A stretch of DNA of 64,000 bases from an uncultured Planctomycetota bacterium (GCA_963823665.1 CAWGMQ010000006.1:64001-128000), one strand, 5' to 3'; numbered from the stretch's first letter, positions 20,689 through 58,068 are shown. Notes: a model not told the origin generated them from the letters alone. Program-made: numbers and translations.

Positions 20689-23600
20689 GTGATTTCGGTC
20701 GCCGCCACGCTCTTCGTGGTCGCGGTGTCGGTCGTGGGTTGGTGGCTCCATGGGCAGTGGCGCAGCGGGCGAGTCGAACTGACGACCGAGGGAGAGCCGG
20801 TCGTCGTGCAGGTGCTCGCGGAGGATTCCGACACGGTGATCGGCGAGTCGTTTGATCTGGCCACGCGCGCGGTCGTGGAGCTTCCGGAGGGGGATTACCG
20901 GCTGCGGGTGAATGGAGAAGGGCGCCTGGGGCGGACGTTTCGGTTCGCGGTCAATCGAGGGGAGACGCTCGCGCATTCGGTTTCGATTGATGAGGGGCGT
21001 TTGCTTGGGGGAGAACCGGGCGAAGGAAGCGAGCCGGCGACGCGGCGCCACGAGCGGTGGATTCCGTTCGAGCGGGCGACAACCGCGCTCGAGCTGGAAC
21101 CTGGGATCTGGCATTTCGTGCAGTGGTCGGCTCGATCGCTCTGTTGCCGCGATGGTCGGACGGGTGCGGTTTTATGGGATGCGCTTCATCCGGCCCAGGC
21201 GTTTGACGAAGGGCGGGACCCGGCGCCGTCGCTTCGCAGCTTTTCCGGGGACACGGACGGAGCCGGACCGCCGAATATCGAACGGATGCAGGTTTTCGAG
21301 CGCGCGTACGACTTCAACGGCGACGGCACGGGCGATGTGCTGTGCTCTTTCCAGGAATCCGCGGCGTTCGTCGCGCTCTCGGGCAAGGACGGGTCACTGC
21401 TCTGGGACCATCTCACTTCAATCGACGGCCTGCCTCGAGCAAAGGAAGCGCTCTCAGAGTCGAAGACCAACATGCGCAGACCGGCGAAATTGGAAACGCT
21501 CCTCGGTGAGGCCGCGGTGGGCGATCTTGACGGCGACGGCCGCGCGGACCTGGTCGCCACGGTCGTATCCACCGGTTGGCATACCGTGATCCAGCCACCC
21601 AGGGCGGGATCGGGGAATCAGCAGGTCCAGACGGAAGTGCAACACTATCGCCGCGCCATCGTGGCGATCTCCGGCAGCTCGGGTCTCGGTCTCTGGCGAT
21701 ATGTGGTCGATGAGACGCCCAATGACCTGCCGAGACGCGCCTCCATTCCTCCAGGCGGGTCTGCATTGCTCGTCGACGACGGGGGATCGCCTCTCGTCGC
21801 GTTTGTCGACGATACGAAGTGGCTGGGGCTGGACCCGGCGACGGGCAAGCTGCGGCTTGGGCCGATTGAGCTTGGTATGGTTCCTAAGCGTCCCGTAAAG
21901 CATGTTGACCTGGATGGCGATGGTGAGCCCGAGATCGTTGCGCTCGGACCTGGCTTGCGCGCGGCCAGGCGCGGGTGAGCGCGATCTCGATCAAGACCGG
22001 TCGGGAGCTGTGGGCAGAGGACGTCGAGAACGTCTACGTTCAGTCCAACCGTGACTTGTCTGCGCCGGACTATCCGGTGATCGTCGATCTTGGCGGAGAG
22101 GGAGGGCCAGGGATCGTGGTCGCCGATTCGGGGACGATGCCACCGGGGGTGGGATACCGTGGCGTGCGTCTGATCGACGGGCGCACCGGGACGACTCGCT
22201 GGCGGCGTCCGTTACGGCCGCAGACGATCGGCAAGGATGGGCTCGCCCAGATCATCGCGGCGCCAGATCTCGATGGCGATGGAACGCGGGATGTGGTGAC
22301 TGTCTCGCTGTTCGACGGGAGAAATCCACCGGCCATCCGTCAGCCGCTCGCGGAGGAGCCGCAGCGAATTTATGTCGACGCGCTGTCGGGACGGGACGGC
22401 CGTGTTCTGTGGTGGTGGAAAGTCGATGGACCGATGTGGGGAATGACGGGAATCGGGAAGCCGGCGTGGTGGGGGCGCGGATCGGATGGATGGCCGCTTC
22501 TGGCTGTGCTGCTCGGTGCGCCGCGTCACGAAGGGCTGCCGAACCGGGTGGAATATGACGTTCCGAGACAGTCCAACGTTCACTTGCTGGAAGCGTCCAC
22601 CGGGCGGGTGCAGCATCGGGTGACCGGGCTGGCACAAGCGAGTTTTGCCGACCTGGACGGAGACGGGCGGGAGGACCTTTGGGGAGAGTGCGAAGGGGAG
22701 CTGCGAGCTTTTCGCGGCGAGGCGCCTGAGGCCTGGCGGGCCCTGGGCTCGTTCCGGCCGGCCGGGCGTTCCGGGGAGACACCCGATCGCGCAGAAGGTA
22801 GGGCGGTGGATCTTGACGGCGATGGGACGAGCGACACGCTCATCGTGGCCGTGCAGGCACCGGGGGCCTGGCGCCTCCAGGCGACGGGCACCCACACATC
22901 GTTGGCGCGCTCCGGAAGCGACGGGCACTTGATCTGGAAGACTGTGATCGATCCCTTGCAGAACTGGCTCGATCCCAACAGCGGCGAATCTTACCACTTG
23001 AGGGTATTTCCGTTGCCTGAAGGCGACTTCGACCGCGACGGCACGCCCGACGTGATTGTGTGGCGCGACGGGCGCCGGGGGGCGAGCCCGAAGATTCGCC
23101 GCGGTCGGGTGATGGGGGTGATTCAAGTGATCTCGGGGCGCAGCGGCGTCAAGCTGTGGTCGGCCGAAACATCGCGGCTGGAGCTGGAGGGCGAAGACTA
23201 CTCGAGTGGCGTGTGGATGGGTGCCCGCGCGGTCGAGCGGGGCGCGGTGGCGGATTTATTCGTGAGGCACACCACCGACAGGCAAAGGGTCATCAGGGCG
23301 GCGGCGATGGCTGGTGTGATCGGGAAGCCGAAGCTGGCGCGGATCTCGGGAAGGGACGGGCGCGTGTTGTGGGATGTGATCCTGGAAGATCAACCGAGCT
23401 GGGACTCGCTTAAACCGGACGCACCGCTTGGGGTTGATGATTTCGACGGTGACGGCGGCCTCGACGCGCTGTTCGAGCTGCCGCGATCTCTTCCGGGCGG
23501 TGGGCCCGAGAAGAGGTTGGTTGCCCTGTCGTTGCGCGATGGGAGGCGCCTCTGGTCGCGAGAGATCAGGACGGATGCAAGCGGTCGATTCGTGGCCTGC

Positions 23601-24914
23601 GCGGGCGACATTGATGGAGACAAGCGGCCGGAAGTGTTGGTCCTGGAAGTGTTCAAGCGCGAGCGCACTGGCCACGCTGAGCTGGAGGTTCTGGCGCTCG
23701 GCGGCGGCGACGGAAAACCGAAATGGACCTGGAATGCAGACAAGTCCTTCCTTGGGGATAACGAGTGGCAATCGATGGTGCTTGCGGACTTCGGAGGGGT
23801 TGGAACAAGAGACGTGTGCGCGACGTTCGTGCTGCAAGATGGGACGCGCCGGGTCATTGTCCTCGATGGGAATGGCAGGGAGCGGGCGCGGCGCGATGAG
23901 GGCACGGCTGTGGTCCAGGCGTTCGAGGCGGTTGACCTGGACGGCGATGGGCGGGATGAGTTGGTCGTAGAAGACGAGAATCGCGTGTGCGTGTGGGACG
24001 CTGCGCTCAAGGACGTCTGGTCGCGGGCGACGCATGGTCGGGCGGTTCAGCGGGTTTTGCAGGGAGCTCGCGGCGAGCCTGGCGCAGTCGTGATTGCGCC
24101 GGCGCTCTCGCTCGACGGAAAAACGGGCCAGCCGCGATGGACCGGCCAGGATCCGCTGTTCGTGCAGGAGGATCGACCGGCGGTGACAATTCTTGATCCG
24201 GGCACCCTGACGCGGCGGCCACGATTCCTCGAGGAACGCGGTGAGTCGACGGTCTGTCGCCTGGCGATGGCGACGACGCCCGACGGCGCCTTGGCCGCGG
24301 CTGCTGGGAAGCCAGTCCAGGCGCGATCGGTCGATGACGACCCGCGCTGGAGGAGGCTGTTGCCGTGGGTTCCGAAGCTGAAAGGGGCATTCGGGCCCTG
24401 GGGTCTTGTCGCTGCGGGCGGGCTTGCTTTCGTTAACCTGGGAATTCCGGTGTTTGTGCTTTGGCTGGCGGGTGGCCGGCGGAAGGCATTCCGCATTCGC
24501 ACGCTCATGGCGCTGCCGATTGCCGCCGTGATTCCGCTGATGGGGTATCTGACGATTGGACCTTGGCTGCCCGTCGGATCAGGGCGATTGCTGGCGACGG
24601 AGGGGAGGGTGTTTCTCGCTGGGACAGTCGGCGGAGTGCCGGTCGTGTTGTACGTGACGTGGATGGTGGTAGGCGCGATCCGCCGGCGGTACACGGATGT
24701 GCTTGCGCTCGTGGCGCTCACGGGATTGGCGACGCTGGCGGTTGCGGGAGGGTGGATCTGGCTTGATTCGAGGTCGAAGGTGGGGCTCGAGCATTATGGG
24801 TGGGACGGCTGGGAGGTGGTCGTGATGGTCGGAGCGTATGGTGCCGCGGCGTTGTGGGGAGCGCGGAGAGGGATGTTGGGAGGTTACAAGTGGATGAGGG
24901 GGCGACGGGCGTGA
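20689..24914 (+). CDS. Array copy 1: membrane protein with FG-GAP/VCBS-like DxDGDG propeller repeats; frameshift near 21965
   Basis: ORFs 20689..21978 and 21975..24914 align colinearly with intact copy 2. Start uncertain. Confidence 0.85.
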
Positions 24915-24945
24915 GGAACGCTCCTTCGCGGAGCGAAAGGCGACT

Positions 24946-27900
24946 ATGATCATCGCGAGACTTCGGGCGATCGCGGATCGAGCCCGCCGGTTGGATTCGC
25001 GAAACCGGCGATGGATTGGGATTGTCTACGCGCTGGGTGGCGTGGTGGTGACGCTGCTCGCGATTGCGGGATGGCGGATTTATGCGGGGTGGCGTACGGG
25101 GCGGGTCGAATTCACGACCGAAGGTGATCCGGTGGTTGTGCAGGTGCTCGCGGAGGATTCTGACACTCCGATCGGCGAGCCGTTTGATCTGGCGACGCGG
25201 GCTGTTGTGGAGCTTCCGGAGGGGGATTACCGGCTGCGGGTGAATGGGAAGGGGCGGCTGGGGCGGACGTTTCGGTTTGCGGTTAATCGGGGCGAAACTC
25301 TGGGTCCCGCGATTTCGATTGATGATGGGAGGTTGCTCGGCGGCGATTCGGTCGAACTGGGCCTCTTCGGCTACCGGCACCGCGAAGTGCGAATTCCGTT
25401 TCCGCAGGTGATCGCGGCACTTGAGCTTGAACCGGGAAGGGCCAGTCTCATGGAATGGGCTGAGGGATCATTGATCCGGCGCGACGGTGCGACGGGAAAG
25501 GTTGATTGGGATGTATTTCACCCGGTCAGGGCGTTTGGCGAGGGAGATGATCCGGTGCCGATCTTGCGCGCCTTCACAGATGAATACGGCGAGAGGCGAA
25601 TTCTGGAGCAAGCAAGCGACCTCGACGGCGATGGCACGCGTGACCTGCTGTGCTGCTTTCCGGGCGCCGCCGCCTTCATCGCACTTTCCGGCAAGGACGG
25701 CTCGATGCTCTGGAATCATCTCGTCGGGGTCGACGGTGCCTCTCGAAAGTCGGGCTTGCTTCCGGGAAGGATGGATGACGCGGGACCGCCTGGACAGCCG
25801 GAGGAGCTCGTCGGTGAGCCCGCATTCGGAGATTTGGACGGCGATGGGGTTGCGGATTTCATCGCCACAACAATATCCGTTGCGCGGTACGCCGGGAATG
25901 AGTCAGCACAAGCTGACTCCAAGAAAGAGTCTACGGTTGTGGACACCCAGCGCTACCGGCGTACGGTCGTTGCGCTTTCCGGTAAGACACGCCGCAGCCT
26001 CTGGCGATACGCCGTCGACGCGACGCCGCGTGAGCTGCCGCGCGCGGTTCCGGACCTGAGCCAACCCACGTTGCTCGCGCGTAGCCGGGATTCGACGCTC
26101 GTGGCTGTTGTCGACGAAGCGAAATGGGTGGGGCTGGACGCGGCGACCGGGAAGCTGCGAGTCGGGCCGATCGAGCTGGGGCAACGTCCGGAACGCGCCG
26201 TTCTCTATCCCGATCTCGATGGCGATGGCGAGCCGGAGATCCTGACGCTTGGACCTGGCCCTACCCGCGGTCAGCGGAGGGTCAACGCGATTTCGATGAA
26301 GGATGGGAGGGAACTATGGGCGCGGGTCGTGGATGAGGGATATGACCAGTCGCGAATGGGTGTGCCACTTGCGGATTATCCGCTGGTCCTGGATCTCGAC
26401 AACGAGGGAGTGATCGGAATCGTCGTGGCGGACTCGGGGGCGATGGCGCGTGGTGCGGCGTATCGGGGTGTGCGACTGATCGACGGTCGCACGGGTGTGA
26501 CCCGCTGGCGCCGGCCGATGCGTCCCCAGGCGGCGGGAACGGACGGGGTCGCCCAGTTGATCGCTGCGCCGGATCTCGATGGCGACGGGATGAATGATCT
26601 GGTGAGCGTCTCGCTGTTCGACGGGAGGACTCCTGCGGCGACGATTCAGCCGGTGCTGAAGGAGCCGCGCCGCGTGTATGTCGACGCGATCTCGGGCAGA
26701 GACGGCCGGGCGCTCTGGTGGTGGAAGGTCGACGTACCGGTTGTGGGAACGGCGCGGATATGGAAGCCCGCTTGGTGGGGACGCGGAGGGGATGGCTGGC
26801 CCTTACTCGCGGTGCCGGTGGGTGGGCAACGCCGGGAAGGGCTTCCGCTCCAGGTGCATCTGGACCCACCGATTCCGGCCAACGTTCATTTGCTCGAAGC
26901 ATCCACGGGGAAAGAAGTGCATCGCGTGATGGGGTTTTCACACGCGCGGTTTGCGGACCTGGACGGAGACGGTATGGCAGACCTCTGGGGAAACTCCGAC
27001 GGCGAGCTGCGAGCGTTTCGCGGCGAGGCATCGGAGGCGTGGCGGGCGCTGGGCCTTTTCAAGGTCGCGGATTCGACCGACTACGCCGTCGAAACCTGCC
27101 GGGATGCGGTCGTCGATTTTGATGGTGACGGGGTCTCGGATGCACTGATCATCGCTGTGCATGCGCCGGGCGACTGGGGGAACGAGACGACTGGGAGCCA
27201 TACAGCAGTGGCCCGGTCAGGTCGTGATGGGCGCACGATCTGGAAGACGGTGGTCGATCCGCGTGAAAGCTGGCTCGCGCCCAATAGCGGGGATTTTTAT
27301 CAGGTCCGTGCATTTCCGTTGCCGGAAGGCGATATCGACGGAGATGGCACGCCTGACGTGATCGTCAGCCGCATGATTCATCCTGGAGGGAGCAAGGGCA
27401 TTCGCCGCGACGACGCGAAGCTGCCGATCAAGCTTCTTTCGGGCCGCACCGGCGCGCGACTCTGGTCGGCAGGAACGTCACCGCTGGGATTCCAGGCACA
27501 ACGCGACTCGACGTACCTGTCTCTCTGTGCTCGCGCAGTCGAGCCGAAGGGCATGCCGGATTTGTTCGTGAAGCACAACAGCTCCACAGGCACGGTTGCT
27601 TTGGCGAACGGAAAAGGGGGCGCGATCGAGACGCCGTGCCTGGCGCGGATTTCGGGACGCGACGGGCGCGTAATATGGGATGTGGCGTTTGAAGAACAAC
27701 TGCGCGCGGCGTCCTTGAGACCTGGCTCGGGGACTCGTTTCGATGACCTCGATGGTGACGGCGGGCTCGACATGCTGATCGGTCTGCCGCGTTCGTATCC
27801 TGATCGCGAGGATGAAAACAAATTGATTGCCATCTCGCTGCGTGACGGCAAGCGGCTCTGGTCGCGATTGCTCCAGTTGGATTGGACTTCTGGGTTTGCT

Positions 27901-29211
27901 GCCTGCATCGGCGATTTCAACGGCGACGAGCGAAAGGAGGTCGTGATCGCGGACGTCGTCGAACGAGAGGGCGACCGCGCTCGGAGGTTGCAACTCGAGG
28001 CACTGGACGGCCGCGACGGAAAGCCCAAGTGGATCTGGTACGCCGGCCCATGGCTGGGGGAACAGGTTCGAGTGGTGCCTGCGGATTTTGAAGGAAGTGG
28101 CAAGAAAGAGCTGTGCGCCAGCTTCGAGACGCCGGATGAAACGCACCGGATCGTGGTGCTCGACGGCGACGGCAAGGAGCGAGTGCGACGCGACGTGGGC
28201 TCGGGGCGGGTCCGGATGCTCGAGGCTGTCGACCTGGACGGGGACGGACGCGACGAGCTGGTGGTGCAACAAGAGCAGTTGCTCGGCGTCTGGGACCACG
28301 AGCTGAAGGATGTTTGGTCGTATGTGGTGCGGGGACCGGGAACGGTCCAGCGAATGGTACCGGGCCGGCGGGGTGAGCCGGGGATCGTGGTCGTGTCGCC
28401 GGCTGTTGGTCTCGACGGAGCGACTGGCAAGCCGCGATGGATTGGCCAGGCACCGCTGCGAGATTCGGGGCAGCGGGCGGAGCCCAGGATTCTTGACCAC
28501 GGGAACCTGGAACGGCTTCCCCTCTTCATTGAGAATCTCCCAGTATCAACCGTGTGCCGCGTGGGGCTGGCAGCAACACCTGAGGGCGGCTTGCGGGCTC
28601 CTGGAGGCACGGTGGTGAAGGCACGCGAGATTGCCGATGACCAGCGGTGGGCGCGGCCGTTGCCGTGGGTGCGGCGGCTCAAGGGGGCTTTTGGGCCGTG
28701 GGGTTTTCTCGCTGCGGGAGCGCTGGCTTTCGTTAACGTGGCGATTCCTGTGCTCTTTCTCTGGCTTGCGGGTGGGCGGCGACGGTCGTTTCGGATTCGC
28801 TCGCTCATGGCGCTGCCGGTTGCAGTGGCGATACCACTGATGGCATTTCTGACGCTGGCGCCTTGGCTACCCGTGGGGTCGGAGAGCTTGCTGGCGAGCG
28901 AGGAACGAGTGTTTGTGATCGGGACGGTTGCAGGAGTGCCGATCGTGTTGTTTGTGGCGTGCATGGTGGCGGGCGTGATCCGCCGGCGGTGGAGGAGTGT
29001 GGTTGCGCTGGTGGGGCTGGCGGGATTTGCAACGCTGGCGATTGCGGGCGGGTGGGTCTGGCTGGATCGGAGGTCGATGGCGGGGATCGAGCATTATGAG
29101 CGGGAGGGGTGGTGGTTGGTGGTGATGGTGGGAGGATATGTTGCGGCGATGTTGTGGGGGGTGAGGATGGGGATTTTGGGGATGTACAAGATGATGCGGC
29201 GGCAGGCGTGA
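24946..29211 (+). CDS. Array copy 2 (intact, 1,421 aa): N-terminal TM, Ig/PEGA-like module, FG-GAP/PQQ-like repeats, ~5 C-terminal TM helices
   Basis: Many D(L/F)DGDG motifs alternating with ISGxDGxxxW; hydrophobic C-terminal ~170 aa after RWARPLPW. Confidence 0.9.
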   Translation: MIIARLRAIADRARRLDSRNRRWIGIVYALGGVVVTLLAIAGWRIYAGWRTGRVEFTTEGDPVVVQVLAEDSDTPIGEPFDLATRAVVELPEGDYRLRVNGKGRLGRTFRFAVNRGETLGPAISIDDGRLLGGDSVELGLFGYRHREVRIPFPQVIAALELEPGRASLMEWAEGSLIRRDGATGKVDWDVFHPVRAFGEGDDPVPILRAFTDEYGERRILEQASDLDGDGTRDLLCCFPGAAAFIALSGKDGSMLWNHLVGVDGASRKSGLLPGRMDDAGPPGQPEELVGEPAFGDLDGDGVADFIATTISVARYAGNESAQADSKKESTVVDTQRYRRTVVALSGKTRRSLWRYAVDATPRELPRAVPDLSQPTLLARSRDSTLVAVVDEAKWVGLDAATGKLRVGPIELGQRPERAVLYPDLDGDGEPEILTLGPGPTRGQRRVNAISMKDGRELWARVVDEGYDQSRMGVPLADYPLVLDLDNEGVIGIVVADSGAMARGAAYRGVRLIDGRTGVTRWRRPMRPQAAGTDGVAQLIAAPDLDGDGMNDLVSVSLFDGRTPAATIQPVLKEPRRVYVDAISGRDGRALWWWKVDVPVVGTARIWKPAWWGRGGDGWPLLAVPVGGQRREGLPLQVHLDPPIPANVHLLEASTGKEVHRVMGFSHARFADLDGDGMADLWGNSDGELRAFRGEASEAWRALGLFKVADSTDYAVETCRDAVVDFDGDGVSDALIIAVHAPGDWGNETTGSHTAVARSGRDGRTIWKTVVDPRESWLAPNSGDFYQVRAFPLPEGDIDGDGTPDVIVSRMIHPGGSKGIRRDDAKLPIKLLSGRTGARLWSAGTSPLGFQAQRDSTYLSLCARAVEPKGMPDLFVKHNSSTGTVALANGKGGAIETPCLARISGRDGRVIWDVAFEEQLRAASLRPGSGTRFDDLDGDGGLDMLIGLPRSYPDREDENKLIAISLRDGKRLWSRLLQLDWTSGFAACIGDFNGDERKEVVIADVVEREGDRARRLQLEALDGRDGKPKWIWYAGPWLGEQVRVVPADFEGSGKKELCASFETPDETHRIVVLDGDGKERVRRDVGSGRVRMLEAVDLDGDGRDELVVQQEQLLGVWDHELKDVWSYVVRGPGTVQRMVPGRRGEPGIVVVSPAVGLDGATGKPRWIGQAPLRDSGQRAEPRILDHGNLERLPLFIENLPVSTVCRVGLAATPEGGLRAPGGTVVKAREIADDQRWARPLPWVRRLKGAFGPWGFLAAGALAFVNVAIPVLFLWLAGGRRRSFRIRSLMALPVAVAIPLMAFLTLAPWLPVGSESLLASEERVFVIGTVAGVPIVLFVACMVAGVIRRRWRSVVALVGLAGFATLAIAGGWVWLDRRSMAGIEHYEREGWWLVVMVGGYVAAMLWGVRMGILGMYKMMRRQA

Positions 29212-29305
29212 CGGAGGCACTTTCGCGGAGCGAAAGGCGACTATAATCACGGGGTGCGGGCGCGTGGGCGTGGGTTCCCTCTGACGGTGGGGTTCCGAGC
29301 ATCCG

Positions 29306-32300
29306 ATGAACCATCGAGATGACAGCGAGACGGCAGATCGAGGCGGGGGATTGGCTTCGGCGATTCGGCGACGGAGGCTGAGGATTCGCGATGGCGTGCG
29401 CGGGGCGGCGGTGATGATGGCGCTCGTGGCGGTGGGGGCCGGCGGATGGATGGGCTATGGGCGGTGGCGAGCGGGTGAGATCGAGCTGCGCACCGAGGGG
29501 GCGCCGCTCGTGGTGCAGGTGCTCGATGTGACTTCGGATGCGCCGATCGGCGAGCCGATTGATCTGGTTGATCGGGCTATTTTGACGCTGCCTGATGGGG
29601 AATACCGGCTGCGAGTTACCGGGAAGGGGCGAGTCGGGCGGACGTATCGGTTTGCCGTGAATCGTGGGGAGCGGCAGTTGCATTCGATCTCACTCGATGA
29701 GGGACGATTGCTCGGGGGTGAGCCGGCACCGCCGAAACCAATGGAGAAGAACTGGCGGCACGTGCCGATTCTGTTTGCGACAGTGACGGCCGCGCTCGAG
29801 CTCGAGCCCGGGAAGGCGGATTTCATCCAGTGGTCGAATGGATCGCTGGTCCGGCGCGACGGCTCGAGCGGCAAGGTGCTCTGGGACGCGTTTCATCCCG
29901 CCAGCGCGTTCGAACGCAAGCGCGACCCGGGGCAGTGGTTTCCGGGCAAGTCGCCTGACGAAAACACGGGCGAGCTGATGGAGACCGCTGCTGAATTCGA
30001 CGGCGATGGCACGAAGGACATGCTGTGGTACTTCCGGGAGAAGTCGCTGTTTCTGGCACTCTCGGGCAAGGATGGCTCGCTGCTCTGGCATCACGTCGCC
30101 GAGCTCGAGCGTGCCGGAGCCGATGGTCCCGGAGCGGCGAAGTCGAATATCCGCGAGAGCGAGATTGCCGGCAAACCGGCGATGATGGACGTCGATCACG
30201 ATGGCGCTGCGGACATCGTCGCGACGGTCCTGTTCGGCGAATCGGCCGAGGAGGCCAAGCGGCGCATCGCGGAGACTGGGGATGACGCTAGCAAGACTGA
30301 ACCGAGGTTCTTTCGGCGTGTCGTGATGGCGATCTCGGGCAAATCGGGAGCGCGGCTCTGGAGCTACGCGATCGACAAGGAGTTCACCCTGCCTATGGAC
30401 GAGCTCCGGCAGGCGAAGCCGCCGGCTGAGCTGATGCAAGCCGGGCGCACGAGCTTGATCGCCGTGCTTGACGACGAGAAGTGGCTGGGGCTCGATCCTG
30501 CGACTGGCCGCATGAAGGCAGGACCGATCGACCTGGGGTTCGCCCCGATACGGCAGGTGCCCCATGCGGACCTGGACGGTGACGGAGAACCCGAGGTGCT
30601 GACGCTCGGGTCTGACTCGGCCGGCGTGAGGCAGAATACACTGCGTGCTCACTCGAGCAAGACCGGGGAACTGTGGTCGCAGGAGATCGGCAGCGCGTAC
30701 CACGTGGGCACTGTGAACGCCTTTGAAAGGCGATTCAAGCGTCGTCCCATTTTCCCCGCCTGCTTGCTGATCGCGGACCTCGACGGCGATGGGCGTCCGG
30801 AGATCGTGGTTGCCGACACCGGGCCGATGCCGCCGCTTGACGGCAGCCGGGGGGTGCGGCTGATTGATGGCGCCACGGGCCAGTTGCGCTGGCGGCGGCC
30901 GATGCGGGTGGAGACCACGGCCGAGGATGGAATGGCGCACATCGTGGCGGCGCCGGACCTCGACGGCGACGGCATGCGCGACGTGATCACGGTGTCGCAA
31001 TATGACGGCAGGAATCCGTTAATCAACTGGCCTCAGGAGCCAGATGAGCCGGCGGCAGTTTTCGTGGATGCATTTTCCGGAAAAGACGGCCGGCCGCTCT
31101 GGTGGTGGTGTGTGGATTTGCCGGCCGATCGATTCACGCGGATTGCGGCACCCGTGTGGTGGGGCCGCGGAAGTGACGGCTGGCCGCTCCTTGCGGTTGC
31201 GCTGGGTGGGATTGATCCCGATGAGGAGGACTCGTTCGGCCGGTCGTATCAGGTGTCCGCGCCGGTCGTGCATCTTCTCGAGGCATCGACGGGGAAGGAA
31301 CAACACGCGGTGATCGGGCTGACGAACGCGAGCGTGGCCGATTTGAACGGCGACGGACTTGCCGATCTTTGGGGTGAGGTTGGTGGTGAGCTGCGCGCGT
31401 TCCGGGGCGAAGCGCCGGAAGCCTGGCGAGCCCTGGGTCAATTCGAGCCGGCCGGGGCGATCGATCGGAGCGTGGGGATTCGCGGGAGAGGCGCGGTCGA
31501 TTTCGATCGGGATGGAATCGCGGACACCCTGGTCAGCGAGCTGGCGGCGCCGGGTACTCAAGACCATCGCACGACGGGCAGCCGCACGGCTGTTGCTCGC
31601 TCGGGCCGGGATGGGCATCTGATCTGGAAGGCCTCGATCGATCCGCGCGAGCTGGTTCGAGCCGAAGAGTGGAGACCGGTATGTGCTTCGCGCATTCCCA
31701 CCACCTGCGGGTGATCTGAATGGAGACGGCGTCGGCGACGTGATTGTGAAGAAGCGGTCGGGGCTTCGCGGTTTCCCGAGTGAGCGGGAATTCACGGTCG
31801 CGATCGAGGCGATTAACGGTCGCAACGGCGCCAGGTTGTGGTCAGCAAGCGTGCCATCTTTGGATATGCTTTCTGTCGATAAGATGACCGACTGGCTCGA
31901 GCCGCGGGTGATCGAAACCAACGGCGCGCCCGACTTGATCGTGCGCCGAGATAGCGGCAACGCCGGGCACCTCGCGCGGCTCTCGGGCCGCGACGGCCGA
32001 ACGCGGTGGGAGACCCGTGTATCCGATGAAGCAACGACTATGGTTCAACCCATGCGTCTGCGTTTGTTTGACGACCTCGACGGCGATGGCGCGCTCGATG
32101 CCCTTGTCGTGTTTCCGCATTCCACGCCGGAGGGTCAGATTGAACACACGATGATGGCGGTTTCGCTTCGCGATGGGAAGCAATTGTGGTCGCAGCCTCT
32201 TCGGTTCCTGGACCGTGTGATGATGCTCGGCGATGTCTGCGTGGGCGACCTTGATGGAGACAAACGGCCCGAGGTCGTCGCTCTCGAGGGGACTGGGGAG

Positions 32301-42511: not shown

Positions 42512-42615
42512 GAGTGAGAATAAGAACAAGATTAAGATTAAGATTAGGATTAAGATTAGGATTAAGATTAGGATTAAGATTAGGATTAAGATTAGGATTC
42601 GGATCAGGATGAAGA
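42506..42615. repeat. GATTAA/GATTAG hexamer microsatellite between copies 5 and 6
   Basis: About a dozen near-perfect hexamers with degenerate flanks. Confidence 0.92.
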
Positions 42616-42673
42616 TGGATGCGGCGGTTTGGGGATGAGCGTTGTGTGTGGGCGGTGGGGCGGTGGGGCGGGT

Positions 42674-42828
42674 ATCGGGCTTACGGCCGAGGTTGGAGGA
42701 CTGGCGTCCCGTCCGAACCACGCACTGACGGGCGTGGTCGTGGGGGTCACTGGCGTGGTCGTGGGGTTTACTACGGCGAGGGCTCATTTGCGAGATGGAC
42801 GATCGGCGCGCCGGGAACATGTTGGGGG
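42674..42828 (+). repeat. Leader shared by copies 6 and 8 (second copy 53608-53741)
   Basis: ACGGCCGAGGTTGGAGGACT(G/T)GCGTCCCGTCCGAACCACGCACTGACGGGCGTGGTCGTG...CGAGATGGACGATCGGCGCGCCGGG at both sites. Confidence 0.88.
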
Positions 42829-48678: not shown

Positions 48679-49078
48679 GGGATCACTCCATGGCATTGGG
48701 GGGCAGAATAACGGGAGGGACCACCGCCCAGGTGGCTTCGTCGGAGGTATCAAACAATTATTGTATCGAGCCGGAGGGGTTTTGTCGCCCCAAAAATTCT
48801 TGAGTTTATTGAAGTTCTTGGATCGAATGCGCGACGTTGCCTGGTCGTCGACCGGCGGCTGACGAAGGGCGACAATGGGGTGGGGCCGGGAGACCTGCGC
48901 AACAGCGGCAGAGGAGAGCCCCGCGTGCGCGGCACCTGCCCCCCTGCCCGCGAGGCGAGGCGATGGCGACGGAGGCGCCGCGCGGTGCTTTCGAAGCTCG
49001 CGAATAACTGTGCGATGGCGATAGTCTATCGGGGAGGAGCGCGGGAGCGGATGAAGGACCTCGGGGCCGGGGTCGGGT

Positions 49079-52000
49079 ATGGATGGGATCGGCGGGAATA
49101 AGGGTGATCGATTGGACGAACAGGCCGAGACGGTTGAGGCGACGCTCTGGGGACGCACTGGTTCCGCGGTGTGGCGGAGGCGGAAGGGGATTGGGTATGC
49201 GATTGCGGCGATTGTGGCGGCCTTGATGGTCGGGGCGGCGTCGATCGGGGGGTGGCGATACTATACCGAGTCGCGAATCGGGCGGGTGGAACTGCTCGCG
49301 GAGGGCGAGCCGGTTGTTGCCCAGGTGCTTGATGAGTCGGGTGATCTGGCGGTAGGTGAGCCGTTTGATCTGGCGACGCGGGCGGTCGTTTCGCTGCCTG
49401 GGGGGGATTACCGGCTGCGGGTGAACGGCGTGGGGCGGATCGGGCGGACGTATCGGTTCGCGGTCAATCGGGGGGAGACGCAGGCGTACACGGTCTCGAT
49501 CGATGAGGGTCGATTGCTGGGAGGCGAACGGGCGCAGGTTTCCGGGCGCGATGCTCGTCGTCGTCGGGCGCCGATTTCGTTTGCGCACGTTCTGGCGCGC
49601 GCGAGATCTTGCCAGGGAAGCCGGACTTCATTCAATTTGACGGGAAATCCTTGGTCCGCCGTGACGGGGCGACCGGCAGTGTGATCTGGGGTGCGTTTCA
49701 TCCGGCGAAGCCGTTTGCGAGCGATCGTGATCCTGTCCGCTGGATGCGCAATGACTTCGATCCGACACCGCCCGGGGGGCTGCTGGAACAGGTGCCCGAC
49801 CTGAACGGCGACGGGGTGGGGGACCTGGTTCTGTTCAACGCCCTGTCGCCGGCTGTGCTGGCGGTTTCGGGCAAGGACGGCTCGATGCTGTGGAACTACG
49901 TGGCCGAGCTCAATGGACTGGGCGGGCCGCGGGAGTTGTGCCCGGAGGCTGTTGCGCGGGTGCGGCCGCCGGGCGAGTTCGGCGCCGGTGGATCGGCGAT
50001 GATCGATGTGGATCACGACGGCACGCTCGACATTTGCGCGACATTTGTTTTCGAAAAGGCGATTCCTGCTGCGAAAGAGGACGGGGATTCTTCCCAGACT
50101 TTCGTTCAGATGGACCTTCGGCGGCGCCGGTCGCTTGTCGTGGGGCTATCCGGGCGATCGGGGCGCCCTCTGTGGACGCATCCGGTCGAGCCGGACTTTG
50201 TCGAGGTCAAGGGCGATGACGAGGTCAGGCCGGCTGAGGTCGTGCGCGGACGGCGGTCGAGTCTGCTGGCGTTCGTGGCGCAGACGCAGTGGATGGGGCT
50301 CGACCCGGGTACGGGCCGTGTGCAGGCGGGGCCACTCGAGCTTGACTTCACGCCGGCGCGGCCGGTTGCACACGCCGACCTTGATGGGGACGGAGAACCT
50401 GAGATCGTAACGATTGAAACGGGGCCGGGCGGGAGAGATTGGACGTTGCGGGTCTGGTCGATCGGGGGCGGGCACCCGGTATGGAGCCAGACGATTGATG
50501 CCGCGTTTGACTCGTCGGACGGGTCGTCGGTGTTCGGTCACCCGTCGGACGGGACGCCGCCCTGCTGTCCGCTCGTTGCCGATCTTGATGGGGACGGGCG
50601 GTCCGAGGTTGTGGTGCCCGATGCCGGGCCGATGCCGCCGCTGGCGGGCTACCGGGGAGTGCGGCTGCTCGATGGGCGCTACGGTGCGACGCGGTGGCGG
50701 CGGGCGTTGCGGGTGGAATCCGAGCAGGAGGATGGGGTGGCGGAGATCATCGCGGCACCCGATCTCGACGGCGACGGGACGCGGGAGGTTGTGATTGTTT
50801 CGCTCCTGCTCGCCCCGGAGTCGCAGGCGCGGATCAAGCAAAGGCAACGGCCGGAGCCGGAGCGCATCTGGGTCGATGTGCTCTCGGGCAAGGACGGCCG
50901 CCCGCTGTGGTGGTGGAATGTGGATGTTCCCGATGACAACCTCAGCCGCATCTGGACGCCCTTCTGGTGGGGACGCGGGCCCGATGGATGGCCGCTGCTG
51001 GCAATTCCAGTGGGCGGGAGTGACGAACTCGGGCCCGCGTCTTCATATGGTCCTGACACGATGAATGAGGTTGTTCATTTGCTCGAAGCTTCGACCGGGC
51101 GCGAGCGGCATGCGATCAACGGGCTCAAACGAGCGAGCCTGGCAGACCTGGATGGCGACGGCCTGGACGATCTGTGGGGGGACGTGGATGGGGAGCTGCG
51201 GGCGTTTCGGGGCGAGGGGGCGGAGCTATGGCGTACTCTGGGCTCGTTTCAGCCGGCGGTGCCATCGGAGTATCGCTGGGACGCGAAGGGCTCAGCGCTC
51301 ATCGATCTGGATGGCGACGGGATTGGTGATGTGGTCAGCGCGGATCTTGAAGCGCCTTCTTTCTGGTCAGCGGATCGGAGCGGGAGCCGAACGGCACTGG
51401 CGCGGTCGGGTCGTGATGGGCATGTGATCTGGAAGACCGCGCTCGATGACTGGGAGAGCTGGCTTTTGCCCGATCGAGGGGAAACTTACACGCTGGCCGC
51501 ATTCCCGTTGCCGGCGGGCGACTTCAACGGAGACGGGACGCCGGACGTGATCGTGACGAAAGAGGAAACGGATGATGACGCCATGGCGGCGATCCAAGCG
51601 ACGACACTGCCGGTGCGGGTTCTATCGGGGCGGACGGGGGCCAGGTTGTGGGCGTCGGGTTCCTTGCCAAGAGGGGTGCGATCGCAGGACGGAATGGCCA
51701 TCATGTCGGCCGACGCGCGGATGGTCGAGCCGGGCGGAGCGCCTGACTTGATTGTTTGCCATCGGGGCTCGTACGTCGCGCCTGGCGCGATGGCACCGGG
51801 CCGGGCGGGTATCGTGAGGGAGAGATTGGCGAGGCTTTCGGGGCGCGATGGGCGGGTGATGTGGGACGTCAGCCTTTCCGAGAAGGACGGCGGAACTTCG
51901 CTCGTGGATGTCGCGCCACGCGACGACTACGACCTGGACGGCGACGGCGGAGGGGACATCGTGCTGGGGCCGTCGAGCTCGGCCAACGTCGACGAGTCTG

Positions 52001-53406
52001 ACCGCGCGGTGATTGCGATCTCCTTGCGGGATGGAAAGCGGATCTGGTCGCGGCCTCTGGAGAATTCCTTCAGCACTCGGTTTGAAATCGTGGTCGCGGC
52101 GGGCGAGGGACCGGGCCGCGGGAATGTCATTGTCCTGGACGAGCTGGACGGGGGCGACCGGTTGGACTTGCGTGTGCGTGCGTTCGATACACAGAGCGGA
52201 GAGCCAGGCTGGAGCACGAAGCCGAGCGCGCTGCGGGCGAGCAGGCCGAGCAACGCGGCGATGGTGTTGGCCGATTTCGGTGGGAACAAGAATCCGTTCG
52301 TTTGCGTGTGCTTCTCGGTGCCGGGCGGAACTCGGCGGATTGTGGTGCTGGGGCCGAGCGGCGAAGAACTCGCGCGACGCGAATGGAAGTGGAAGGGAAA
52401 TGACGGGGGCGGGCTCTTCGCGGCGGACATGAACGGCGATGGCCGCGACGAGCTGGTGGCGTGGGGTGGGGGCCGGCTTCAAATCTTGGACCGTGAGCTG
52501 AAGGATGTGTGGGCGCGCGAGATTGAACCCGTCACGATGGTTCTCGATCTGAAGGGCCGAGTCGGACGCGGGCGCGAGGTGATGATTTCGCCGGCGCTTG
52601 GGCTTGACGCGGCGACCGGGCGGCCGAAGTGGACCGGGCCGGCGCCGCTCGTGGCTCGTCAATTTGTGCCGTATCTGCTCGATCCGGGTGATTCGACGCG
52701 GGGGCCTCGTTTGATCGCGAACAGCCTGAACGCGACGGTTTGCCGGATGGCGATGGAGACGAGTTTGGATGGCAGAATTGCGGAGCCGCGGGGGAGGGTT
52801 GTGAAGGCTGGGAACGCGGCGGATGACCCGCGCTGGAGACGACCGCTGCCGTGGGTGACGGGGCTCACGGGGGCGTTTGGTCCGTGGGGGTTATTGACGG
52901 CCATGGGGCTTGCGGTTGTGTCTGTGTATATGCCGATTTTGGTTATTCGGCTGGCTCGTGGGCGGAGGCGGAAATACACGATCCGGGCGCTCATGAGTGC
53001 GCCCGTCGCGGCGGCGATTCCGCTGCTGGTTTATCTGACGGTCGTGGCGCGGCTGCCTCGTCTGAGTGAGAGCCCGCTGCTGGCGACGGATGGGAGAGTG
53101 TTTGTGACTGGGACGCTCGTGGGGGTGCCGATTGTGGCTTGCGTGATGTGGATCGGGGTGAGTGTGGTGCGGCGGCGGTGGTGGTTGGTTGGGTTGATTG
53201 GGGTTGGTGTGATCGCGACGATCTTGGTTGCGGGAGGGTGGATGTGGGTGGATCGGAAGGCGATGGCGGTGGGCTTCGAGCATTATGAGTGGGACAGGTG
53301 GGGGTTGGTGGTGATGGCGGGGGGGTATGCGGCGGCGGTGATTTGGATGGTGGGGGTTGGGGTTTATGGTTGGGTTCGGAGGTTGAACAGAAGGGAACGA
53401 AGATAA
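49079..53406 (+). CDS. Array copy 7; frameshift near 49600
   Basis: ORFs 49079..49684 and 49609..53406. Confidence 0.85.
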
Positions 53407-53477
53407 CGAAGGGGGCGAGAGGGCAGCGGCATTCGTCGGTGAAGAGTTTTCTTTGGTGCGGGCTTTGACGTGTTGGG

Positions 53478-53552: not shown

Positions 53553-53707
53553 CATGGTACGCTGATCGGGGATTCGGTCGGTGGTTGGGCGGGTGTGGGA
53601 CGGGGGGATCGGGCTGACGGCCGAGGTTGGAGGACTTGCGTCCCGTCCGAACCACGCACTGACGGGCGTGGTCGTGTGGTTCGAGGCGGCGGGGGTTCCT
53701 TTTCGAG

Positions 53708-56700
53708 ATGGACGATCGGCGCGCCGGGGACATGTTGGGGGCTGGGCGACTGCGGGGGATCGTGCGTGTCGGTCGCTGGGTCCTGGATCGGGCTCACGAG
53801 CGTGGGGCGGCGGTTCGCTATTTCGCGCTGGGCGCTGCGTTCACGCTCGCGGTGATTGCGGCCGTGGTCGGGGGATTGCGGCTCTACGGGGAGTGGAGGA
53901 TCGGGCGCGTCGAGCTGATCGTCGAGGGGGAGCCGGTGGTGGGGCAAGTGCTGGCCGATGGGTCGGACACTGCCGTTGGCGAGCCGTTTGATCTGGTGAG
54001 CCGCGCGGTGCTGGCGCTGCCTGATGGGGAATACCGGCTTCGGGTTGAAGGGAAGGGACGTGTGGGGCGGACCTATCGGTTTGCGGTGAATCGGGGGGAG
54101 ACGCAAACTCACGAGATTTCGCTCGACGAGGGGCGATTGCTCGGCGGCGAGCGGCGAGCGGCAGACGCGGACGAGGGAAGGCAGGGGCACGGGCACTCGC
54201 GGATTCGGTTCGCGCCCGGGACCCTTGCGCTCGAGCTTCGGCCGGGGCGGGCGGATTTGATCGAGTGGTCGGCGACTTCTTTGATTTGCCGGGATGGATC
54301 GACCGGGAAGGTGCGGTGGGATGCGCTTCATCCTGCGGTGCCGTTTGACGGCAAGCGTGATCCCGGGGCATGGCTGGCGGACGGATTGCTCGCGAGCGGG
54401 GCAAGTGGGCTCCTATCTCCGGCTCTTGATCTCGACGGCGATGGAACGGGCGACTTGCTCTGGTATACGCGCGCATTGCCCGCCCTCGTGGCGCTTTCCG
54501 GCAGGGACGGGGCGATTTTGTGGAATTACGTGGCCGAGCTGGACGGGCCGGGTGGACCCCGCAGCGATCGGGCGGCGGCGGCGCGCACCAGGAACCGGTC
54601 GTCCAGGATCAGCGGAATTGCCGGTCGGCCGCTGGTGACGGACGTTGATCATGACGGCCGGCCGGACCTGCTGGCGACGGTTGTGTTCTCGGAATCGAGG
54701 GAGGAGCACGCGCGGCGGACCGCGGCGCGCGGTGTCGGATCATCATTCGAGAAACGTGTGCTGGTGGCGGTCTCGGGCCGATCTGGGGCGGAGATCTGGA
54801 GGCACGCGCTCGACGGGAAGTTTGTCGAGCTGCCGCGGGAGCGGCATATCAAACTGCCGGTGATGGTGCACGGCCGGCGGTCAACCCCGATCGGCTATCT
54901 CAACGGAACGCAATGGTCTGGACTCGACCCGGCAACCGGGCGGGTGCAGGGCGAGCCAATCGAGCTGGGCTTCGTGCCGGTCGCTCCGGTTCAGCATGCA
55001 GACCTCGATGGAGATGGAGAGCCCGAGATCGTGGCGCTCGGACCGGGGAGCTCGGACGAGCTGAGTACGCTGCATGCGGTTTCCATCAAAACACGCCGCG
55101 AGCTATGGGCCGTGGACGTCTCTGCCGCATGCGACGTATATCAGAATATGATTCCGTATGGCTTGCCGTCGTTCTGGGATGATCGCCGTCCTGCCCTTTT
55201 CCCGTTGATAGCGGATCTGGATGGCGACGGCCGGTCGGAGATCGTGGCGGCGGACTCGGGTGCATTGGCGTCGCGCGCTGGTTATCGTGGGGTTCGTCTC
55301 ATCGATGGCTTGAGCGGCAAGACGCGGTGGCGGCGACCGATGCGGCCGGAGAACAGCGTGGGGGATGGACTCTCGCATCTCATCGCGGCGCCGGACCTGG
55401 ATGGCGACGGCATTCGAGACGTGCTGGTCATTTCTCGATACGCGGGGCGGCATCCGCTGGCGGGCTCCAAGGCGGACACGGAAGAACCCGTGCGTGTGTA
55501 TGTCGACGCGTTATCGGGCAAGGACGGCCGAGCTCTGTGGTGGTGGCACACGGACCTGGCCGAGAAGAAGCTCGCGTACATCCGGGCGCCCTTGTGGTGG
55601 GGACGAGGACCTGATGGGTGGCCGATGGTGGCAATTGCGCTCGGCGGTGCTCACGATGGGCTAATCGGCCGACGTGCGGGCGGCCGTGATGTTGCGCCGG
55701 GCGTCGTGCACCTGCTGGAGGCAACGACGGGGAGCGAGCGGCACCGGGTGCCGGGGCTGGCGCAGGTGAAATGCGATGATTTGGACGGCGACGGGCTACT
55801 TGATCTTTGGGGTGAGGTGGACGGGGAGCTGCGCGCGTTCCGCGGGGAGGCGCCGGAGGCCTGGCGGGTGCTGGGCCGATTTGCGCCGGCGGGAGGAGAC
55901 CAGTACACTGATCGAGCCGGAGAGGGCCGGGGTGTTGATTTCGATGGAGATGGAATTGCCGATACGTTGATCGGATATCCGGGCGAGCGCGGCGGACCGG
56001 GGTCTCGGCTGAGTGGCAGTCGCACTGTGGCGGCTCGGTCTGGGCGAGACGGGCGCTTGATCTGGAAGAGTTTCGTCGACGCGCGGGGGAGCTGGTTCAA
56101 CCCGACGGGCCGGGATGATTATGAGCTGAGCGAGCTGGCAGTGCCGGCCGGCGATCTCGACGGGGACGGCACCGCTGATGTGATCGTTCGGAAGCTGGCC
56201 GCGAGCGGATCGTCACCAACCCGGTCTCGTTCGTCTGCGGCGATCGAGCTGCTTTCGGGCAAGAGCGGTACGAAGTTGTGGTCGGTGAGCTTTCTGCCGG
56301 ACGGCGCCGGTGCCTGGCCGAGCGATTGGGTCGAGCCGTGTGCGATCGAGCCAAACGGTACGTCGGACTTGATCGTGCAGAGCGGACAGGGGGAGAGCGT
56401 GCGGCTGGCGAGAGTGTCGGGGCGGAATGGACGGATTGTCTGGGACGTCGACATCGCGAGGGAACGTCGCGTCGAGATTCGCGTCGAGAATCTGCCGCAC
56501 TTCCTGGCTGATCTGGACGGGGACGGCGGGCTCGACGCCCTCACTGTGCTGCCGCACGCCGATCAGCCTGGATACACGCTGGCCGCAGTTTCACTGCGTG
56601 AGGGTAAGCCACTCTGGTCGCGGGCGGTGACGCTGCGGGGGGAATTCGTCCGCCTGGGCGAAATTCGGGTCGGCGACATCGATGGAGACAAGCGGTGCGA

Positions 56701-58068
56701 GGTCGTGGTACTTGACGGCTTCGGTGGTGAACGCGGCAAGATCGACGTTGGTGTTCGCGCATTCGACGGGCGCGACGGCACACTTCGCTGGACGTGGAAG
56801 CCGGGCGCGGGCGCAGGATTGCGGACGACGGGCAGGCGATCGCTCTGGCGAATTTCGAGGGGCGGGGCATCCGGAGCGTATGCGTGGCGTGCGGTGTGGC
56901 GACGTTGAGCGGCCTGGAGCGAAGGACTGTTGTGCTTGGGGCTGATGGACAAGAGCGGCTGCAACATGCGGTGGCTCTCTCTCGCGATGGTCTCTTCGGC
57001 GCGGCTGATCTTGATGGCGACGGCAAGGATGAACTGGTGGGAACGGTCATGGAGAGGGGCTCGTTTGTGAGCCGCGTCTGCGCGTGGGACCGAGACTTGA
57101 CGGAGCTGTGGAGCTGGCCGGCGCGAACGAACGCGGGTGCGGGGCGGACTGTCGTATTTGAAGGCACGGACCAGCGGGTTATGCGATCTCGAACGATCGA
57201 GCGGATTTTACCCGCTTCGTGGGGCCGGGCGGCACGCGTGATCGTTACGCCGGGGCTGGGGGTCGACGGAGCGACGGGCCGACTACTCTGGAAAGGGCAG
57301 GCCGCGCTGGAAACTCACTCTGTCCCGACGCTGCTTGATGCCGGTGATGACTCGGGCGGGGGTGCGCGGTTGATCGGTCATGGAGCGGGGGGCGCGACCG
57401 TTTGTCGCGTGGTGATGGCGACGGATGCGGAGGGGATGGTTGCTCCAGCGCGGGGGCGAGTGTGGGTGGCTGCGGGTGGGGCGCCTGACCCGCGCTGGAT
57501 GAGGCCGCTGCCTTGGAAGAGGCGGCTGGAAGGATTTTTCGGGCCGACGGCGTTTGTGGCGGCGGGTGGCCTGGCGCTAGTGAACGTGGTGTTGCCGCTG
57601 CTGGGGCTGTGGTTTGCGATCGGGCGGCGCCGGGTTTTTCGAGTCTGGGCACTCTTGGTGGTGCCAGTGGCGGCTGCGGTGCCGCTCATGGTTTATCTGG
57701 GTTTGGCGCCGTGGCTGCCGGTGGGGGAGTCGAGGTGGATCGCAACGGAATGGAGCGTGTTTTGTGCGGGTACGCTGGCTGGGGTGCCGGTGGTGATGGG
57801 GTGGTGGTGGGTCGTGGCTGCCGTCGTACGAGGGAGGTGGAGGCAGGTTTTGGAGATGGTCGGGTTGGTGGTGGTGGCGACCATGTTGGTGGCGGGGGGG
57901 TGGATGTGGGTCGATCGGAAGGCGATGGCGGTGAACCTCGAGCATTATGACTGGGAGGGGTGGGGCTTGGTGTTTTTGGTGGGGGGGTATGGGGCGGCCG
58001 TGGTTTGGGGGGTGGGGGTTGGGGTTTATGGGTTGATTCGGAGTTTGAACAGACGTGAACGACGGTAA
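53708..58068 (+). CDS. Array copy 8; frameshift near 56820
   Basis: ORFs 53708..56908 and 56794..58068. Confidence 0.85.

Follow-up and report, generated by a model that had tools for sequence, protein, structure and literature searches.

Eight related genes and the proteins they encode

The stretch of DNA analysed here, referred to as the window, comprises 64,000 nt from an uncultured Planctomycetota bacterium (GCA_963823665.1 CAWGMQ010000006.1:64001-128000), and all feature coordinates are relative to it. Its source genome, G000, has a size of 16.5 Mb and was analysed through searches and through stretches fetched from it rather than from the complete file. The window carries the planctomycete marker genes DUF1501, DUF1559 and DUF4058, and close homologs are labelled Isosphaeraceae. 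Between 20546 and 58068 it contains eight paralogous genes, all co-oriented on the plus strand, whose products resemble the sensor half of a receptor kinase that is linked to an extracytoplasmic function (ECF) sigma factor. The eight copies share 43-57% pairwise identity, which excludes a chance likeness. Each has the conserved N-terminal module, the blocks RGVRL[IL]DG..G..RWRR and P.WWG[RL]G.DG[WL]P, a DLWG-type block and 8-11 DxDxDG-type motifs. A preliminary description of this DNA had the array start at 20689, but copy 1 in fact begins at 20546. The eight co-oriented paralogs with all the motifs named in it were found again in 8/8 copies on re-examination; the neighbours do form a co-oriented run, but a minus-strand DUF1501 gene breaks it into a 6+2 arrangement (copies 1-6 and 7-8).

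20546..24914, plus strand: copy 1, a kinase-less mosaic; frame breaks near 20665 and 21960
24946..29211, plus strand: copy 2, the unbroken reference of 1421 aa; ortholog in the sister species G001 at 72%
25018..25086, plus strand: copy 2, N-terminal membrane helix after the Arg-rich tail; in kinase-fused relatives the helix comes after the kinase
25096..25284, plus strand: copy 2, beta-rich module, conserved and modelled with six strands; crossover zone of mosaics
25408..27051, plus strand: copy 2, first VCBS/FG-GAP-type propeller, probably ~9 blades by the strand list of the model
27058..28575, plus strand: copy 2, second propeller, likewise probably ~9 blades; region covered by structural matches
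28696..29205, plus strand: copy 2, five-helix membrane domain without a clear fold match; C-terminus predicted to lie inside
29306..33672, plus strand: copy 3, kinase-less; breaks near 31650 and 33069; G001 ortholog 67%
33804..37989, plus strand: copy 4, kinase-less; break near 37537
38145..42511, plus strand: copy 5, kinase-less; break near 40650
42795..47014, plus strand: copy 6, kinase-less; breaks near 42957, 45420 and 45841
47206..48696, minus strand: DUF1501 gene splitting the array 6+2
49079..53406, plus strand: copy 7, kinase-less; break near 49595; G001 ortholog 81%, there in a different array
53708..58068, plus strand: copy 8, kinase-less; break near 56810; G001 ortholog 70%

Hydropathy averaged over 88 family sequences predicts a single helix around residues 25-47 and a group of five from 1251 to 1420; by the Arg and Lys counts, the parts that lie inside are the N-tail, two loops of the C-terminal region and the C-terminus itself. 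Residues 50-1245 were modelled by AlphaFold (53 rows; pLDDT 78, pTM 0.78) as a six-stranded module followed by a long run of four-stranded blades, and the C-terminal part as five long helices (pLDDT 93). About 18 blades were counted from the strand list of the model, which probably form two propellers of about nine blades each (9+9); the structural matches cover model residues 656-1151. On the double-anchored multi-propeller plan that had been proposed, hydropathy (1+5 helices) and the AlphaFold models agree. The DxDxDG loops sit between strands A and B of the modelled blades, where they would bind Ca2+. The beta-rich module is the best conserved part among the copies (mean 66%), and Pfam and NCBIfam scans gave no match for it.

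The copy proteins pass the Pfam cut-offs for FG-GAP_3 and FG-GAP (PF13517, 82.4 bits vs a cut-off of 26.9), and PF23727, the FAM234 propeller, matched above its cut-off across 46 residues, whereas PF01011 (PQQ) reached 16 bits, below its cut-off of 26.7. A weak, sub-cut-off Pfam match to TcdB_toxin_midN on the DxDxDG stretch was taken as a likeness to propellers and not as a sign of a toxin. The structural matches were to generic propellers, namely BBS9 (Z 17.3, root-mean-square deviation 4.5, 263 aligned), a PL11 lyase (Z 16.3), Bap1 (Z 15.4, 328 aligned, 20% identity) and integrin alphaIIb (Z 14.9, tied with many WD40 rows). By sequence, the only solved relatives were Bap1, over one stretch (E 7e-10), and three PL11 lyases, the latter by weak and partial matches (E 6e-6 to 1e-4). 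The ESM Atlas gave no usable match for the whole protein or the five-helix domain. Fold searches with that domain found no clear match either (best Z 5.2, on helical hairpins; no Foldseek E <0.001), and by sequence it has 277 relatives at E <=0.001, among which the 150 listed carry it mostly at or near the C-terminus.

As described in PMC9218822, PMC3192720 and the Bap1 preprint, Bap1/RbmC, the PL11 lyases YesW/YesX and integrin alpha share with the array proteins DxDxDG loops between the first two strands of a blade. Unlike all of these, the array proteins have about 18 modelled blades, probably in two domains, PQQ-like SGxDGxxxW turns and 1+5 helix anchors. Bap1 is secreted and has no membrane-spanning domain; the PL11 proteins are enzymes, and integrins have seven blades and a beta subunit, with the integrin motif described as present in every blade (PMC3192720). 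Many homologs bear the automatic Joint Genome Institute (JGI) name of BamB/PQQ-like lipoproteins, a group marked by a lipoprotein signal and one PQQ propeller, but a cysteine after the first helix is absent in 8/8 copies, which leaves no lipoprotein site, and the PF01011 cut-off is not reached. Two eukaryotic membrane-anchored propellers also came up, EMC1 among the top Foldseek rows (TM-scores <=0.2, 9-10% identity) and FAM234/ITFG3 through the PF23727 match; as modelled, this likeness suggests a shared multi-propeller build and does not imply kinship.

Only copy 2 is unbroken. The other seven copies contain 11 frame breaks, including two near the N-termini of copies 1 and 6. Short-read contigs from runs X1 and X2 of two studies span the break at 45841 in copy 6 and contain two extra letters that put the halves in frame; this break is an assembly error. 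The other ten of the 11 breaks were not spanned, short-read joints with sides of 20-39 letters having been excluded from use. Run X1, which may be the source sample, contains pieces identical to copies 2-8. Every break lies at a GC dinucleotide or a G run, to which we give little weight since such runs are common at 65% G+C. An unrelated amine oxidase gene (16814-18368) is split into two frames in the window and is whole in its counterpart in G001. The 3' end of the M1 peptidase gene (18365-20200) also seems to shift frame; together with the split amine oxidase, this adds to the signs of assembly indel errors. When the array was checked for mis-assembly, which the preliminary description had raised, no sign of it was seen: separate arrays exist elsewhere, one of them with eight unbroken genes.

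Kinship with receptor kinases linked to an ECF sigma factor

Among the best 120 homologs listed, 11 are proteins of 1600-1790 aa in which an N-terminal Ser/Thr kinase is fused to the same helix, module, propellers and five helices; copy 2 is 36-45% identical to these 11 over 81-100% of its length. G000 itself has 14 members, namely the eight in the window, three further kinase-less ones and three kinase-fused paralogs (at C3:86.5k, C3:17k and C6:1440k), in which the catalytic motifs of the Pkinase domain are intact and to which the array copies are 36-42% identical. The kinase profile gave no match at or before any of the eight array copies. The preliminary description knew of no precedent for these proteins; after the short N-tail, however, all of the protein corresponds to the sensor half of a Ser/Thr receptor kinase linked to an ECF sigma factor, which occurs three times in G000.

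At one G000 locus the order is kinase-less gene, kinase-fused gene, ECF sigma factor gene. This sigma factor (C3:91904-92485) scores 204.9 with TIGR02984 (cut-off 183.75) and is the sole close copy in the genome, the next best being at 52%. Outside the bacterial family, 5/5 whole loci, from four other families of the class, consist of a single kinase-fused gene followed by an ECF gene; these five came from a sample of 301 genomes of the class, with two candidates scored per genome. The L065 and G009 loci have the same arrangement. A FastTree phylogeny of 183 sequences and 1282 columns was rooted on Pirellulaceae kinases, with seven near-duplicates dropped and broken genes read with X. One of its clades has 35 members, of which 32 are kinases (support 0.60), and another has 145, of which 139 are kinase-less (0.999); many kinase nodes in the FastTree trees are weakly supported, and some database proteins tallied as kinase-less may be pieces of broken kinase genes. 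The eight copies lie within a 67-member subclade, all kinase-less (support 1.0), together with the kinase-less gene of the G000 kinase-ECF operon. The tree and the kinase-fused loci outside the family indicate, at the level of sequence comparison, that the kinase-fused form is ancestral and that the array was derived from it through loss of the kinase.

Kinase-linked ECF groups of planctomycetes have already been described (PMC7826278), and activation of an ECF sigma factor by its kinase was demonstrated for EcfP/PknT (PMC8999054); the kinase would activate the ECF sigma factor in the kinase-fused relatives of the array too. These relatives share a Pkinase domain, six helices and an adjacent TIGR02984 ECF gene with the kinases associated with ECF59, ECF61, ECF62 and ECF217 (PMC7826278; models EcfP/PknT and EcfK/PknS, PMC8999054), among which the ECF59s1 kinases are given six helices and the ECF61 kinases five or more (PMC7826278). 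They differ from the described kinases in that the kinase precedes the ECF gene. The array genes, unlike the ECF-associated kinases, have no kinase, no adjacent ECF gene and no kinase promoter motif, and the parts of PMC7826278 and PMC8999054 that describe those kinases mention neither kinase-less paralogs nor an FG-GAP/VCBS sensor. According to PMC11032199, planctomycetes are very rich in membrane Ser/Thr kinases, and for most of these the input is unknown; its relevant passages do not mention FG-GAP or propellers. Literature searches, whose coverage of subscription journals is thin, returned no description of a kinase-less, tandemly expanded derivative. The kinase-ECF unit belongs to a known kind, and its kinase-less tandem derivative appears to be new.

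A two-part motif, GTGACR-N13-CGGCCCTA, was found 70-125 nt before the kinase genes. In G000, GTGACA-N13-CGGCCCTA occurs exactly three times (C3:86423-86449, C3:17082-17108 and C6:1440418-1440444), each time before a kinase-fused member. Eight of nine exact matches in five genomes precede such kinases, against one match of the reversed control, the motif having been derived from those same eight sites. Over all fetched loci, the motif without its last letter stands before 21/30 kinase-fused and 0/58 kinase-less genes, and seven further kinase genes carry near variants; the cognate ECF gene comes next after 18/30 kinase-fused vs 1/58 kinase-less genes (none in the window). With up to three mismatches the window holds nine matches vs 11.9 expected, and the array is without the motif. 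No wider regulon was visible in a one-mismatch scan of G000, which gave 11 matches vs 24 for the reversed control. In metagenome contigs, 12/120 motif matches have such a kinase just downstream (8/66 where at least 500 nt of downstream DNA is present), so most matches there are unrelated. From its two-part shape and its position, the motif is likely the promoter of the ECF sigma factor encoded at C3:91904-92485.

At L280:7874-12800 (G073:C15) the cognate ECF gene comes directly after a kinase-less member, an arrangement that a deletion between a kinase-less and a kinase-fused gene in tandem would produce. Behind the ECF gene or the array, four genomes have a gene whose N-terminus is similar (L031:18596-19870, L048:5703-6929, L265:2432-4345 and L280:13361-14800), and 3/4 of these match the outer-membrane efflux family PF02321.

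Copy number, recombination and selection

Members are present in 25/121 genomes of the bacterial family, with 1-14 matches each. Kinase-less members occur in 20 of these genomes and kinase-fused ones in 18; 14 have both, six only kinase-less, four only kinase-fused and one an unclassified fragment, many of the genomes being incomplete. In the sister species G001, five copies occupy the same site, behind a DUF4058, an amine oxidase and an M1 peptidase gene, and another three lie elsewhere; among them are orthologs of copies 2, 3, 7 and 8, at 67-81% identity. In genus g58 a different branch was expanded behind dapF, to 8, 6, 4, 1 and 1 copies in G090, G091, G092, G088 and G093; in G090, 8/8 tandem copies are single open frames, 34-40% identical to the window copies. 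Judging by the different branch expanded in g58, arrays arose at least twice, separately, and copy number is labile (1-8 per locus). That copy number would differ between related genomes had been anticipated, and the counts in G000, G001 and g58 confirm it. A dapF gene (diaminopimelate epimerase) directly precedes the kinase-less gene or array in six genomes (L252, L256, L259, L272, L282 and L289), and cbiX stands behind in two; this may be a mere insertion site.

Copy 1 is a mosaic. Its N-tail and first helix belong to one lineage (67-70%, vs 21% to the lineage of the body), as does the beta-sandwich, whereas its propellers (78-94%) and five-helix domain come from another, the switch lying in the conserved module. 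Exchange is also seen between the two forms. The mostly kinase-less clade of 145 includes six kinase-fused proteins (one a fragment), whose sensors are those of the kinase-less clade; the five with whole kinases fall on three kinase branches, each beside kinases of the other sensor type (supports 0.64-0.95). In P0023 the best match beyond its sister changes from a kinase-fused protein (first helix, 72%) to a kinase-less one (next module, 80%). When the kinase-ECF loci of G000 and G001 are compared at the DNA level, the kinase-less gene is 72-96% identical and the ECF gene 88-93%; the kinase gene reaches 78-85% in its first half and 44-58% over the sensor. The sensor half of a kinase was thus replaced between two species of one genus (L031:12517-18489, G000:C3, vs L048, G001:C4). 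The start of this swap lies within the kinase domain, so that a different kinase gene was probably the donor. None of the kinase sensors is close to an array copy (36-42%). Recent gene conversion within the array was considered and rejected: over 50-270 nt no coding stretch exceeds about 89%, and a lone stretch of 96% is a dispersed repeat found genome-wide.

In plants, receptor-like proteins consist of an ectodomain, a membrane anchor and a short tail; they derive from receptor kinases, form tandem clusters and change by birth and death and by recombination. By analogy with these and with the receptor-like kinases, the array shares a derivation from a receptor that lost its kinase, tandem expansion and recombination. 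It differs in its unrelated fold (propellers, six helices), and no positive selection was found. Plant receptor-like proteins signal via a partner kinase, whereas three genomes in the present set retain the gene without the family's kinase. Loss of the kinase, repeated tandem expansion of the sensor half and sensor exchange by recombination, as in the plant proteins, would be a route apparently undescribed for bacteria.

The ratio of nonsynonymous to synonymous divergence (dN/dS), obtained by simple counting and open to inflation by high G+C, was 0.30-0.39 in 4/4 array ortholog pairs with G001, and the sequences indicate purifying selection on the kinase-less copies. Once the blades of the model had been assigned by hand, loops B-C and D-A showed a mean entropy of 2.6 bits and nearly all of the length variation, against 1.0 bits in loops A-B (which bear DxDxDG) and C-D (35 vs 36 loops). 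In propeller topology these two sets of loops lie on opposite faces. Pooled over six kinase-less pairs, dN/dS was 0.56 in the variable-face loops, 0.24 in the opposite loops and 0.33 in strands; in the five-helix domain it ranged from 0.10 to 0.46. No site class with dN/dS >1 was found by simple counting in kinase-less pairs. The pattern of the variable face fits ligand-binding faces that diverged long ago; the same pattern is common in many propeller families and is not positive selection. Of the diversified repertoire envisaged at the outset, the variable loops on one predicted propeller face stand, but the diversification is old and constrained (orthologs at 67-81%), with no sign of positive selection.

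Location and possible roles

Planctomycetes have been described as having a Gram-negative cell plan with an outer membrane and a periplasm, in which macromolecules accumulate (PMC5394234). Given this plan and the six alpha-helical segments, the array proteins are predicted to reside in the inner membrane with their propellers in the periplasm, and not, as the preliminary description had it, to form a surface receptor or adhesin system. We tentatively favour, at a probability of roughly 40%, a periplasmic binding repertoire that acts independently of the kinase and that also supplies sensor modules to kinases. In this scheme the membrane and sensor half of a receptor kinase would have lost the kinase and been copied into eight genes, whose products would each expose two propellers in the periplasm. 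If the array is expressed, each copy would likely bind a different ligand, probably a glycan, on the variable face opposite the DxDxDG loops, and hold it at the membrane without the family's kinase and without sending a signal of its own, while the conserved five-helix domain may bind some membrane partner. As an evolutionary side effect, the kinase-less pool would likely feed new sensor modules to kinases via homologous recombination. The products of immunity-gene arrays bind harmful proteins, and by analogy with these the binding of harmful periplasmic proteins may be a further possibility; a glycan is our best guess because of the VCBS relatives. VCBS-like propellers are typically tied to carbohydrate recognition (PMC9218822), and the Bap1 propeller has been described as binding an exopolysaccharide (bioRxiv 10.64898/2026.08.03.742583).

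The following evidence led us to place kinase-independent binding first. In G049, G053 and G088 (95, 96 and 99% complete) there is one kinase-less member each, and no kinase-fused member, with all N-module candidates scored, or cognate ECF gene was found; their best ECF matches reach 49-54% vs 73-81% for cognates. The kinase-less genes of G049 and G053 have a dN/dS of 0.30 between them, and in G088 the order is dapF, the gene, cbiX, where G015 has a kinase and an ECF gene between the gene and cbiX. The first helix, moreover, is 53% identical among kinase-fused but 33% among kinase-less members, against 40% and 45%, respectively, for the five-helix domain (300 random pairs each, of related and hence not independent sequences). 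The kinases' promoter motif, too, is missing before all 58 kinase-less genes. A number of observations weigh against kinase-independent binding. Of the 20 genomes with kinase-less members, 14 also have a kinase-fused one, and seven genomes from four genera have a kinase-less gene on the upstream side of the kinase-ECF unit, as a co-receptor would be placed, although a tandem origin explains this too. The G088 copy is less constrained (dN/dS 0.50 and 0.62) and fails the RW.RPLPW pattern, the G049 copy fails the WWG pattern, and the divergence between G049 and G053 (dS 1.1) may be mostly older than the loss of the kinase. Beside the arrays, the 34/97 candidate neighbours that were scanned against Pfam included no conserved gene for a transporter or a glycan enzyme; an anchor alone would not require six helices; and the propeller matches are generic from BBS9 downwards, so that the ligand class is proposed by analogy.

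Placed a little below it is the possibility, which we regard as doubtful, that the kinase-less proteins bind ligands, associate with their kinase-fused paralogs in the membrane and activate them, or damp them as decoys, so that in G000 11 sensors would serve three kinases and one ECF sigma factor. The modules are the same as in the kinases, the array's clade includes the kinase-less operon partner of a kinase, and the five-helix domain remains constrained in the six kinase-less pairs. Upstream of the kinase-ECF unit stands a kinase-less gene, adjacent or within about 2 kb in G000, G001, G015, G066 and G067 and at 11 and 20 kb in G074 and G021, and the three G000 kinase genes at three loci share one motif and one close ECF sigma factor, suggesting that the family acts across loci. 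Adjacency and co-occurrence are, however, expected from tandem duplication and shared ancestry; the three near-complete genomes retain a kinase-less member where neither kinase-fused member nor cognate ECF gene was found, and the first helix, the would-be carrier of the signal, is relaxed in kinase-less members. In Hanks-type kinases, a dimer with a kinase-less partner would block rather than drive trans-phosphorylation, so larger clusters would have to form. Of a similarly unlikely order is a bacterial counterpart of the receptor-like protein and receptor-like kinase system, in which a receptor kinase was split into a signalling version and a large recombining kinase-less repertoire, the two pairing in the inner membrane so that a single sigma factor, activated by phosphorylation and with a promoter of its own, would receive the input of many periplasmic ligands. 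If the kinase-less proteins do act on the kinases, this would be a bacterial receptor/co-receptor system; if they do not, a signalling receptor would have turned into a diversified periplasmic binding protein. Experimental handles are given by the one ECF sigma factor, by a motif that occurs three times in 16.5 Mb and before kinases only, and by natural genomes with 0-11 kinase-less members.

The remaining explanations are ranked lower. That the array is mainly a reservoir of sensor modules for kinase genes, with the N-terminal module and the five-helix domain as homology arms, is improbable in our estimation, even though copy 1 has its crossover in the conserved module, six kinase-fused proteins bear sensors of the kinase-less clade, and sensor identity drops at the syntenic G000/G001 locus. 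In silent-cassette systems (vls, Rhs and contact-dependent inhibition (CDI) orphan modules) the cassettes lack a start and N-terminus of their own and decay outside the transferred part. Here, unlike in those systems, 8/8 copies retain a start codon, the Arg-rich tail and the first helix, several of them shared with orthologs, and a dN/dS below 0.4 throughout would be unexpected of silent cassettes; no kinase sensor is close to an array copy, and the G000/G001 swap requires a kinase-bearing donor. Variable cell-surface adhesins or recognition proteins, which the variable face, the tandem expansion and the likeness to the adhesin Bap1 would suit, seem more improbable still, as six alpha-helical segments with Arg-rich inside loops are a mark of the inner membrane, the first helix is not followed by a lipoprotein cysteine, the models have no beta-barrel, and planctomycetes possess both outer membrane and periplasm (PMC5394234). 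Last, and very improbable, are duplicates that are neutral or in decay, or an artefact of assembly: seven of eight copies are broken in the assembly and intergenic repeats resembling repetitive extragenic palindromic (REP) elements could promote duplication, but the single break tested is an assembly error, dN/dS is well under 1, other genomes have unbroken arrays, and run X1 holds pieces identical to copies 2-8.

The repeats between the genes are as follows.

20427..20447, 24924-24944 and 29221-29241, plus strand: REP-like 21-nt dispersed repeat; 113 matches genome-wide
42517-42616 (plus strand), 33682-33723 and 58077-58122: runs of a hexamer tandem repeat
42670-42742 (behind the hexamer run, within the plus-strand feature 42517..42742) and 53604-53676: 66-nt dispersed repeat; 26 matches in G000

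With 113 occurrences in the genome, the REP-like unit is not specific to the array, and the idea of array-specific intergenic elements was rejected, as the repeats are dispersed genome-wide. A repeat unit of the AACAGAAGG type overlaps the 3' ends of copies 4, 7 and 8. Elsewhere in the window, a DDE transposase gene (DDE_Tnp_1, DUF772) lies at 8426-9847, and an alpha/beta-hydrolase (acetyl xylan esterase-like) fused to a GH18 domain is encoded on the minus strand at 10062-12446. On the minus strand at 12634-15532, two overlapping frames, probably one broken ECF57-type gene, encode an ECF sigma factor that has carboxypeptidase-regulatory-like domains and a long extension at its C-terminus. G000 has a very large ECF set, with at least 37 sigma factor matches at E <=1e-20 among the 150 of 377 candidates scored.

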